From Escherichia coli (lineage in GTDB: Bacteria; Pseudomonadota; Gammaproteobacteria; Enterobacterales; Enterobacteriaceae): a DNA stretch of 7,246 bases. This document shows, piece by piece, positions 1,395-2,730 of the stretch; position 1 is the first letter of the stretch, and each line of letters opens with the position of its first letter. The stretch lies in assembly GCF_003334765.1 (NCBI RefSeq), contig NZ_QOWT01000061.1; one strand, written 5' to 3'. Position numbers and translations under genes: made by a program. A model generated the notes under the pieces. The model worked only from the letters and a program-made list of their open reading frames with translations. It was not told the DNA's origin and did not search any database.

Positions 1395-1613
1395 ATGAAG
1401 CAGCGTATTACAGTGACAGTTGACAGCGACAGCTATCAATTGCTCAAGGCATATGATGTCAATATCTCCGGTCTGGTAAGCACAACCATGCAGAATGAAG
1501 CCCGTCGTCTGCGTGCCGAACGCTGGAAAGCGGAAAATCAGGAAGGGATGGCTGAGGTCGCCCGGTTTATTGAAATGAACGGCTCTTTTGCCGATGAGAA
1601 CAGGGACTGGTGA
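1395..1613 (+). CDS. ccdA: Antitoxin CcdA (F-plasmid type)
   Basis: 72-aa product beginning [72 protein letters not shown], recognised as F-plasmid CcdA. The ORF tool began earlier at a TTG (1335); the ATG at 1395 fits the known protein length. Confidence 0.95.
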
Positions 1614-1614
1614 A

Positions 1615-1920
1615 ATGCAGTTTAAGGTTTACACCTATAAAAGAGAGAGCCGTTATCGTCTGTTTGTGGATGTTCAGAGTGACATTATTGACACGCCCGG
1701 GCGACGGATGGTGATCCCCCTGGCCAGTGCCCGCCTGCTGTCAGACAAAGTCTCCCGTGAGCTTTACCCGGTGGTGCATGTCGGGGATGAAAGCTGGCGC
1801 ATGATGACCACCGATATGGCCAGTGTGCCGGTCTCCGTTATCGGGGAAGAAGTGGCTGATCTCAGTCACCGCGAAAATGACATCAAAAACGCCATTAACC
1901 TGATGTTCTGGGGAATATAA
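1615..1920 (+). CDS. ccdB: Toxin CcdB (DNA gyrase poison)
   Basis: 101-aa product beginning [36 protein letters not shown] and ending [10 protein letters not shown], recognised as F-plasmid CcdB. The ATG lies 1 nt after the ccdA stop, so the two are translationally coupled. Confidence 0.95.
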
Positions 1921-2730
1921 ATGTCAGGCTCCGTTATACACAGCCAGTCTGCAGCCAGGGTACCGGCAGTTTATTCTGCCGGACAGTCTCCACAACTTCC
2001 TGTTGTCATTGATTATCCGGCAGCTCTGGCACTTCGCCAGATGTCGATGGTTCATGATGAACTGCCGAAATATCTGCTGGCTCCGGAAGTGAGTGCCCTG
2101 CTCCATTACGTCCCGGATCTGCGCCGCAAGATGCTGCTGGCCACACTGTGGAACACCGGTGCGCGCATTAATGAAGCACTGGCGCTGACGCGGGGGGATT
2201 TTTCGCTCGCGCCTCCGTATCCGTTTGTGCAGCTGGCCACTCTGAAGCAGCGGACCGAAAAAGCCGCCAGGACGGCAGGAAGAACGCCTGCCGGACAGCA
2301 GACTCACCGGCTGGTTCCGCTCTCCGACTCCTGGTACGTCAGTCAGCTGCAGACGATGGTGGCAACACTGAAAATTCCTCTGGAACGGCGTAATAAACGA
2401 ACAGGCAGGACAGAGAAAGCGCGGATCTGGGAAGTGACGGACAGAACGGTCAGGACCTGGATTGGGGAGGCGGTTGCCGCCGCTGCTACTGACGGTGTGA
2501 CGTTCTCTGTCCCGGTCACGCCACATACGTTCCGCCATTCCTATGCGATGCACATGCTGTATGCCGGTATACCACTGAAGGTCCTGCAGAGCCTGATGGG
2601 GCATAAGTCCATCAGCTCAACGGAGGTCTACACGAAGGTGTTTGCGCTGGATGTGGCTGCACGGCACCGGGTGCAGTTTTCGATGCCTGAGTCCGATGCG
2701 GTCACAATGCTGAAAAACAGACACGCATAA
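1921..2730 (+). CDS. resD: Tyrosine site-specific recombinase ResD (F-plasmid D protein, multimer resolvase)
   Basis: 269-aa ORF abutting the ccdB stop. C-terminal tyrosine-recombinase motifs are present: HTFRHSYAMHM (His-x-x-Arg box) and STEVYTKV (catalytic Tyr). Gene order ccdA-ccdB-resD is as in F. Confidence 0.9.
   Translation: MSGSVIHSQSAARVPAVYSAGQSPQLPVVIDYPAALALRQMSMVHDELPKYLLAPEVSALLHYVPDLRRKMLLATLWNTGARINEALALTRGDFSLAPPYPFVQLATLKQRTEKAARTAGRTPAGQQTHRLVPLSDSWYVSQLQTMVATLKIPLERRNKRTGRTEKARIWEVTDRTVRTWIGEAVAAAATDGVTFSVPVTPHTFRHSYAMHMLYAGIPLKVLQSLMGHKSISSTEVYTKVFALDVAARHRVQFSMPESDAVTMLKNRHA

Follow-up and report, generated by a model that had tools for sequence, protein, structure and literature searches.

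A classical F-type ccdA-ccdB-resD module with minimal gene spacing in sequence assigned to an Escherichia coli IncF plasmid

Introduction

A resolvase gene situated behind the ccd promoter has been described for the F plasmid since the 1980s. According to a 2020 paper (PMC7157771, citing Lane 1986 and de Feyter 1989), the ccd genes of F are in an operon with this gene. In pSLT, a virulence plasmid of Salmonella, RT-PCR demonstrated that ccdAB is co-transcribed with the homologous recombinase gene rsdB; deletion of the ccdAB promoter lowered RsdB approximately two-fold, with residual RsdB remaining, and extra CcdB resulted in more RsdB (PMC5065971). Secondary sources on the F operon are not unanimous: according to PMC5065971, F has no "such" operon of six genes, and a legend in a bioRxiv preprint mentions a termination site where resD begins.

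We analysed a 7,246-nt stretch of E. coli DNA (contig NZ_QOWT01000061.1 of assembly GCF_003334765.1; hereafter, the window) for which an earlier note had proposed that ccdA, ccdB and resD form a single transcript with translational coupling, such that resolvase expression is tied to the addiction module. The genes, their junctions and the surrounding cis elements were compared with those of F and of other related loci.

Results

Gene identities and spacing

The three genes were read directly from the sequence as follows.

1395..1613, + strand: ccdA, antitoxin (ATG 1395-1397, TGA 1611-1613, 72 aa)
1615..1920, + strand: ccdB, gyrase poison (ATG 1615-1617, TAA 1918-1920, 101 aa)
1921..2730, + strand: resD, tyrosine site-specific recombinase for multimer resolution (ATG 1921-1923, TAA 2728-2730, 269 aa)

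A single A at 1614 separated the ccdA stop from the ccdB ATG (gap of 1 nt), and the ccdB stop directly abutted the resD ATG (gap of 0 nt); the earlier note had given both spacings, and they proved exact to the base. As ccdB and resD share a reading frame, ATG 1921 is the earliest codon open to the resD ORF. Such close spacing is ordinary for operons. Other neighbours in the same window were also tightly spaced; the genes for hyp91 and a ParA-like protein overlapped by 7 nt, and parM and the next gene were 4 nt apart.

CcdA matched the NCBIfam equivalog NF010264 over residues 1-72 of 72 (163.7 bits, cut-off 100), and CcdB matched the equivalog NF010262 end to end (214.2 bits, cut-off 147). CcdB also aligned over residues 1-101 with the solved F-plasmid CcdB (PDB 1vub, E 3.6e-64). 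[quoted passage not shown] Residues W99-G100-I101 of CcdB, which are needed for killing, were present in its C-terminal end (...LMFWGI).

ResD matched Pfam PF00589 over residues 51-240 (E 2.7e-17), and its R82, H202-x-x-R205, H228 and Y237 aligned with the catalytic motifs of solved XerC-like (4a8e) and XerD proteins. The catalytic domain began at approximately residue 42, and the N-terminal tail was variable. We rejected an assignment to XerC or XerD because the NCBIfam scores were far below the cut-offs (82.7 bits against 329.6 for XerD and 76.2 against 335.2 for XerC); ResD was therefore filed as a ResD-type tyrosine recombinase. The calls of all three genes in the earlier note were borne out by the equivalog models, PF00589 and the match to F. 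The label "resolvase" has to be dropped in its serine sense, as the PF00589 match and the catalytic residues identify ResD, at the level of sequence, as a tyrosine recombinase and not a serine enzyme. We also considered resD as a deletion fusion whose first codons came from a PSLT029-like gene (MRVSEQ...); there was no convincing homology, and the tail aligned with other recombinase tails.

Comparison with F and spread among plasmids

In F (NC_002483), ccdA lies at 46340-46558, ccdB at 46560-46865 and a site-specific integrase gene at 46866-47672, with the same 1-nt and 0-nt gaps. Both junctions of the window were identical to those of F in pairwise alignment (GACTGGTGAAATGCAG and GGAATATAAATGTCAGGC), so that the comparison suggested in the earlier note turned out in its favour. 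Throughout the ccdA-ccdB-resD/rfsF locus of F (RepFIA region, 46340-47672), gene order, junctions, gaps and the distance to rfsF were all alike.

CcdA was the identical protein (0 non-synonymous and 3 synonymous differences), and CcdB differed at 1 residue. The DNA aligned with F resD along its whole length; ResD differed at 12 amino acids within its first 260 codons and had a different C-terminal end. No difference was found in codons 1-11 and 31-41, whereas codons 12-30, a fast-evolving segment, carried 3 synonymous and 6 non-synonymous differences, and codons 42-260 carried 36 and 6, respectively. A few substitutions occurred in the operator/promoter region, and one rfsF arm was TCACGGATCT here and TTACGGATCT in F. 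The flanks differed; the window has vapBC upstream and a ParA-like/ParM stability region downstream, whereas F has pifC and repE/sopAB.

Upon searching PLSDB (72,556 plasmids) with a 120-nt query across the ccdB/resD junction, we obtained 2,778 records, at least 2,448 of them with at least 80% coverage. Several E. coli IncF plasmids, e.g., pLAO63, matched the whole window at 99.8-99.9% identity. Going by these matches, the window is from an E. coli IncF plasmid with a classical F-type (RepFIA) stability module, and the arrangement is evidently not a chance juxtaposition. As the gene spacing is the same as in classical F and is present in thousands of plasmids, the module is an ordinary one. 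It is the already known textbook ccd-resD module of the F plasmid.

Cis elements around the genes

The following elements were located outside the three genes or at their 3' end.

975..1215, no strand: conserved block of the rfsF/oriV1 type, preceding the gene string that ends in the recombinase
977..1004, + strand: rfsF-like 28-bp recombination site, predicted cis target of ResD, AGATCCGAAAAAAGGTAGTCACGGATCT, with 10-bp inverted arms and an 8-bp spacer
1260-1288, + strand: second promoter-like site 5' of ccdA (consensus scan)
1320..1349, + strand: promoter-like site TTTACG-18-AATAAT at the position of the ccd promoter/operator (consensus scan)
2726..2800, no strand: two hairpins just 3' of the resD stop
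2773-2800, - strand: second of these hairpins, with its T-tail on the minus strand; a scan called a terminator-like site at 2800-2773

The published rfsF pattern, AGATCCGNAANNNNNNNNTTNCGGATCT (PMC8299605), had its sole match in the window at 977-1004 with one mismatch, and 0 of 200 shuffled sequences matched it. This site is 391 nt 5' of the ccdA ATG, the same distance as in F (2923-2950 of our F locus, L002). Palindromes at 1035-1086 had been taken for the rfsF core at first impression and were discarded because the published 28-bp pattern puts rfsF at 977-1004. The surrounding block aligned with the F, pO157-like, pSLT-like and pUMNK88 loci, always 5' of the cargo genes, and contained near-palindromic 14-mers at 1039-1052 and 1073-1086. 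The region 5' of ccdA aligned with the F sequence upstream of ccdA, and the site at 1320-1349 is the putative functional ccd promoter. Since rfsF lies alongside the promoter region and the genes, the window holds a complete rfsF - promoter region - ccdA - ccdB - resD module; its close homology to F ResD and the rfsF in cis mark it as a predicted F-type ResD/rfsF system.

The hairpins after resD folded more stably than expected by chance (z -2.66; 1 of 200 shuffles folded as well) and are likely the 3' end of the transcription unit, where they may act as a terminator on the plus strand. The hairpin at 2773-2800 probably also terminates the convergent gene.

Evidence for a single transcript

In the consensus scan, which can miss atypical signals, promoter-like sites of the module were found only 5' of ccdA. 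A lenient scan (8/12 matches) found no plus-strand promoter-like site in 1400-1990, ccdB included. Likewise, a consensus scan, of a kind that overlooks atypical signals, gave no plus-strand terminator-like site before 2718 and no intrinsic terminator between ccdB and resD. The earlier note had named an independent promoter and terminator at this very place as the finding that would speak against it, and the consensus scans revealed none on the plus strand. A perfect 7-bp hairpin inside resD (1963-1982, CCGGCAG/CTGCCGG) was rejected as a terminator, being without a U-tract.

Ten related loci were retrieved for comparison. In the F type, resD follows ccdB with no gap (0 nt). In the pSLT type, a Leclercia plasmid and an IncI1-typed Salmonella plasmid, ccdB is followed at 1 nt by a gene of approximately 100 aa, with the recombinase gene further on after an 11-nt overlap or a 33-34-nt spacer. 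Two Klebsiella plasmids carry unrelated genes after ccdB, at 57 or 144 nt, and in Shigella pINV the resD after ccdB is truncated by an IS. Other loci have the recombinase but no ccdAB: in the pO157-like arrangement (1,118 PLSDB records), it stands 1 nt behind a 137-aa gene, and in pUMNK88_K88 it stands behind two other genes. At 7 of 7 loci (window, F, L003, L005, L006, L008 and L009), it was the last gene of a co-directional string, with a gap 5' of it of 0 nt in the window and F, +1 nt in L003, +33 nt in L005, +34 nt in L006 and L009, and -11 nt in L008. That the recombinase always ends a co-directional string begun after an rfsF-type block fits a gene lacking its own promoter region.

Taken with the statement on F in PMC7157771 and the RT-PCR result for pSLT, the F-identical layout and the absence of internal plus-strand signals in the scans uphold the single transcript claimed for ccdA-ccdB-resD, which is well supported, mostly through the literature and analogy. 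The tie between resolvase expression and the addiction module held up in part. In pSLT, RsdB follows both the promoter and the CcdB dose; however, promoter loss merely halves RsdB, and the tie therefore need not be exclusive.

Junctions and translational coupling

1603..1617, + strand: junction 1, consisting of AGGGAC (ccdB ribosome-binding site in ccdA codons 70-71), TGA, A and ATG (direct reading)
1910..1923, + strand: junction 2, GGGGAATA TAA ATG, with the Shine-Dalgarno (SD)-like GGGGA in ccdB codons 99-101 and the stop abutting the resD start

The stop-to-start proximity looked for in translationally coupled genes was present at both junctions (1 nt and 0 nt). At junction 1, the anti-SD duplex energy was -7.0 kcal/mol, and the CcdA:CcdB ratio is known to be set by the ccdB ribosome-binding site, which lies within ccdA codons 70-71 (PMC9555053). 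The 1-nt spacing was kept in homologues of 83-86% identity, in which the spacer base varied among A, T and G, and became a TGATG overlap in a homologue at 70% identity.

At junction 2, the sole ribosome-binding signal was GGGGA, 6 nt before the resD ATG (anti-SD duplex -5.5 kcal/mol), and the RNA had no significant local structure (z +0.65). GGGGA was also present where no gene follows ccdB (L007 and L010). As it is imposed by CcdB codons W99-G100-I101 and occurs without a following gene, it gives no independent sign that coupling has been selected for. Recombinase genes abutting or overlapping the upstream gene had weak anti-SD pairing (-5.5, -5.9 and -6.6 kcal/mol), whereas those with a 33-34-nt spacer had strong ACGGAGGGGGAC-type sites (-11.2, -11.2 and -8.3 kcal/mol). 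This pattern would be expected if the abutting versions use ribosomes arriving from the upstream gene, and it is a hint in favour of coupling. Meanwhile, the listed genotype of widely used mini-F derivatives in which ccdB is frameshifted is resD+, a hint against strict coupling in that full translation of ccdB is perhaps dispensable. The translational coupling proposed in the earlier note is thus partly documented from ccdA to ccdB (PMC9555053); from ccdB to resD, it is the spacing that suggests it, and there it is plausible.

Alternative explanations

We considered whether the abutment at junction 2 is itself an artefact of annotation, with the true ResD start at M41 (2041) or M43 (2047) behind an untranslated spacer of approximately 120 nt. 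Pfam places the start of its domain at residue 51, and the alignment to Xer profiles begins at residue 42; codons 12-30 carry more non-synonymous than synonymous differences from F (given above), and the pUMNK88_K88 homologue is annotated from the M41-equivalent because of an in-frame TAA in the tail upstream. Against this, the tails of six other homologues can be aligned in frame, with whole-codon indels and a common (L/V)PA..LPV(A/V)IDYP motif, codons 1-11 and 31-41 are the same as in F, and the resD ORF opens at the first possible codon. Since the SD at the internal ATGs is almost nil (-1.5 kcal/mol), we consider an internal start highly improbable. At junction 1, the stem rather than the spacing might be the main regulatory element, enforcing strict ccdA-to-ccdB coupling. 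Positions 1578-1589 pair with 1643-1654 in a 12-bp stem around the ccdA stop, the ccdB ribosome-binding site and the ccdB start, and the 80-nt junction folded far more stably than its shuffles in the window (z -3.15, 0/200) and in F (z -3.45, 0/200). Nevertheless, the arms are coding sequence of both genes, the stem is disrupted in pSLT-type ccdAB (z -0.61), and across 8 homologues no compensatory change was found and 4 of the 12 pairs broke in at least half of the sequences. Without covariation and broken in the pSLT type, the stem stays unproven, and we judge it quite unlikely to be the main element.

A further account holds that the 0-nt junction arose incidentally when genes between ccdB and the recombinase gene were lost; resD would be co-transcribed yet served by its own weak ribosome-binding site or, in part, by a cryptic promoter, with a loose tie to the addiction module. 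The relatives L008, L006, L009 and L005 have 0, 1 or 2 added genes between ccdB and the recombinase, a variation that makes the junction evolutionarily plastic. The roughly half level of RsdB in pSLT without the ccd promoter, the suitably spaced GGGGA (-5.5 kcal/mol) and the ccdB-frameshift mini-F plasmids described as resD+ agree with it as well. Yet no promoter-like site appeared in ccdB even upon lenient scanning, homologues that have a spacer of their own possess a markedly stronger SD, and precisely this junction persists in thousands of plasmids, though these are close relatives. On balance, we regard this account, taken as a whole, as unlikely.

Discussion

The best explanation of the locus, to which we assign a probability of roughly 0.72, is an F-type module rfsF - Pccd - ccdA - ccdB - resD working as follows. 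The autoregulated ccd promoter 5' of ccdA would give one mRNA that covers the three genes and extends to the hairpins 3' of resD. Translation of ccdB would start at a ribosome-binding site that lies within the final codons of ccdA and is weak by design, and resD would be translated at a low level from the abutting ATG, through re-initiation by ribosomes finishing ccdB and/or direct binding at GGGGA. ResD would then act on rfsF approximately 0.9 kb upstream and resolve plasmid dimers. As the CcdA-CcdB complex represses the promoter, we propose that the ResD supply tracks the state of the addiction module. From the sequence, this model draws on what the three genes are and how they are spaced, on their identity to F, on the presence of rfsF and on the lack of consensus sites for an internal promoter or terminator; from the literature, it draws on the operon status in F and the co-transcription and promoter dependence in pSLT.

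The analysis confirmed that the plasmid carries an F-type module for addiction and dimer resolution in intact form. This helps with annotation and with the prediction of plasmid stability, and otherwise adds little. A dimer resolvase under a TA-regulated promoter is a neat design that has been shown experimentally for pSLT. What is modestly new is comparative only: the same recombinase gene is promoter-distal behind differing cargo, and its ribosome-binding site is weak if abutting and strong if spaced. It is possible, although doubtful, that the stretch from the rfsF-type site to the recombinase start is a general, exchangeable cargo slot, in which a recombinase gene without its own promoter is fed by the upstream cargo and the strength of its ribosome-binding site is tuned inversely to the tightness of abutment. 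If so, the slot would hold ccdAB in F, ccdAB with one or two small genes in Leclercia and pSLT, the 137-aa gene in pO157 and two unrelated genes in pUMNK88.

Comparison with known systems

The ccdABST six-gene operon of pSLT (PMC5065971) has a homologous recombinase gene, rsdB, and homologous ccdA/ccdB (approximately 83% DNA identity). Like the window, it has co-directional genes with tiny gaps and a 1-nt ccdA/ccdB gap; experiments there showed co-transcription as well as control through the ccd promoter and conditional cooperativity. It differs in having PSLT029 and PSLT030 between ccdB and the recombinase gene, and rsdB has its own 33-34-nt spacer and an SD of -8.3 to -11.2 kcal/mol, compared with -5.5 kcal/mol here. 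The pO157-like/IncFIB arrangement (e.g., NZ_CP035766) carries the same recombinase (approximately 95% DNA identity from codon 25 on), likewise with an rfsF-type block upstream and a recombinase gap of 1 nt. However, its upstream gene, encoding the 137-aa hypothetical protein, is not TA, and the N-terminal tail of its recombinase is different.

Tn3-family transposons with TA pairs beside resolvase genes are a more distant parallel, as the TA and recombinase genes share a promoter region, for which the proposed benefit is coordinated expression during multimer resolution (PMC7157771). They differ from the window in their TA families, in using mostly serine resolvases (TnpR) and in being transposons rather than plasmid backbone. 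Finally, Cre/loxP of phage P1 and XerCD/dif-cer are, like ResD, tyrosine recombinase systems that resolve dimeric replicons at a short site built of inverted arms, and the catalytic R, H-x-x-R, H and Y are conserved across all of them. ResD is set apart from Xer by scores of 76-83 bits against cut-offs of 330-335 and by having no N-terminal core-binding domain of Xer length; a further difference is that its gene adjoins both its own site and a toxin-antitoxin pair.

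Recombinase N-terminal tail and its variants

We compared the recombinase gene of the window with those of five related plasmid loci (L003, L005, L006, L008 and L009). In these sequences, the recombinase had a fast-evolving N-terminal tail of variable length (about 30–40 residues; 1921–2040 in the window), and the protein outside the tail was under strong purifying selection. In the same set, recombinase genes abutting their neighbour had a weak Shine–Dalgarno sequence, whereas those separated from it by a 33–34-nt spacer had a strong one.

Two further plasmids carry altered recombinase loci. 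In pUMNK88_K88 (2449–2551 of its locus), an in-frame TAA interrupts the ancestral N-terminal tail of the recombinase homologue near codon 14. A 252-aa ORF lying upstream extends with its 3′ end into the tail in a different frame, and the annotated start of the recombinase corresponds to M41; this recombinase may be truncated or produced by re-initiation. In Shigella flexneri pINV (2525–2540 of its locus), resD ends 9–10 nt past the ATG and is followed by transposase remnants. The pINV ccdB, which has no recombinase, is a natural uncoupled variant.

RNA stem at the ccdA/ccdB junction

A 12-bp RNA stem, formed by 1578–1589 with 1643–1654, surrounds the ccdA stop together with the Shine–Dalgarno sequence and AUG of ccdB. 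The z value of the fold against shuffled sequences was -3.15 in the window and -3.45 in the F plasmid (NC_002483). The stem is disrupted in pSLT-type ccdAB, and no compensatory changes in it were found among eight homologues.

Downstream and upstream neighbourhood

Downstream of resD are two cassettes for partition or stability, in divergent orientation, and an ORF pair occupies the end of the window:

2868–3781, minus: ParA-like AAA ATPase and a 91-aa partner, with a 7-nt overlap between the genes
4010–5378, plus: ParM, followed after 4 nt by a 130-aa "plasmid partitioning/stability" protein
6604–7243, minus: two adjoining ORFs (145 and 72 aa) similar to IS3-family transposase fragments

The 7-nt overlap and the 4-nt gap in the cassettes indicate that tight gene packing is the norm in the window. 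At about 5410–6540, the window lacks about 2 kb present in the closely matching E. coli IncF plasmid pLAO63. The missing segment takes in umuD and a dinI-like gene, along with the 5′ portion of umuC and the beginning of a DUF1281 gene; the window therefore has a truncated umuC adjoining a DUF1281 fragment. Related plasmids annotate the 145-aa/72-aa pair likewise as IS3-family transposase, and, at this edge of the window, the pair probably represents a disrupted insertion sequence.

The region upstream of ccdA contains the following features:

146–801, minus: vapB/vapC (vagCD-type) toxin–antitoxin pair, divergent and upstream of the rfsF region
870–952: tandem repeat of a 34-nt unit (2.4 copies, 71% matches) with many CATATG/GGATATG motifs
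977–1004: 28-bp rfsF-like ResD target site, AGATCCGAAAAAAGGTAGTCACGGATCT
Within 1035–1086: two near-palindromic 14-mers, CACAACATGTAGTG and CACTATATGTTGTG, with 20 nt between them

Both 14-mers and their flanking sequence are kept in F, pO157-like and pSLT-like plasmids; they may serve the resolution region as accessory or oriV1-type sites. The vagCD–rfsF–resD neighbourhood has been reported in IncR backbones (PMC9412624), and we also found it in pO157-like and Klebsiella plasmids. Compared with F, the rfsF of the window differs by a single base in one arm (TC, where F has TT), and its distance to ccdA is the same.
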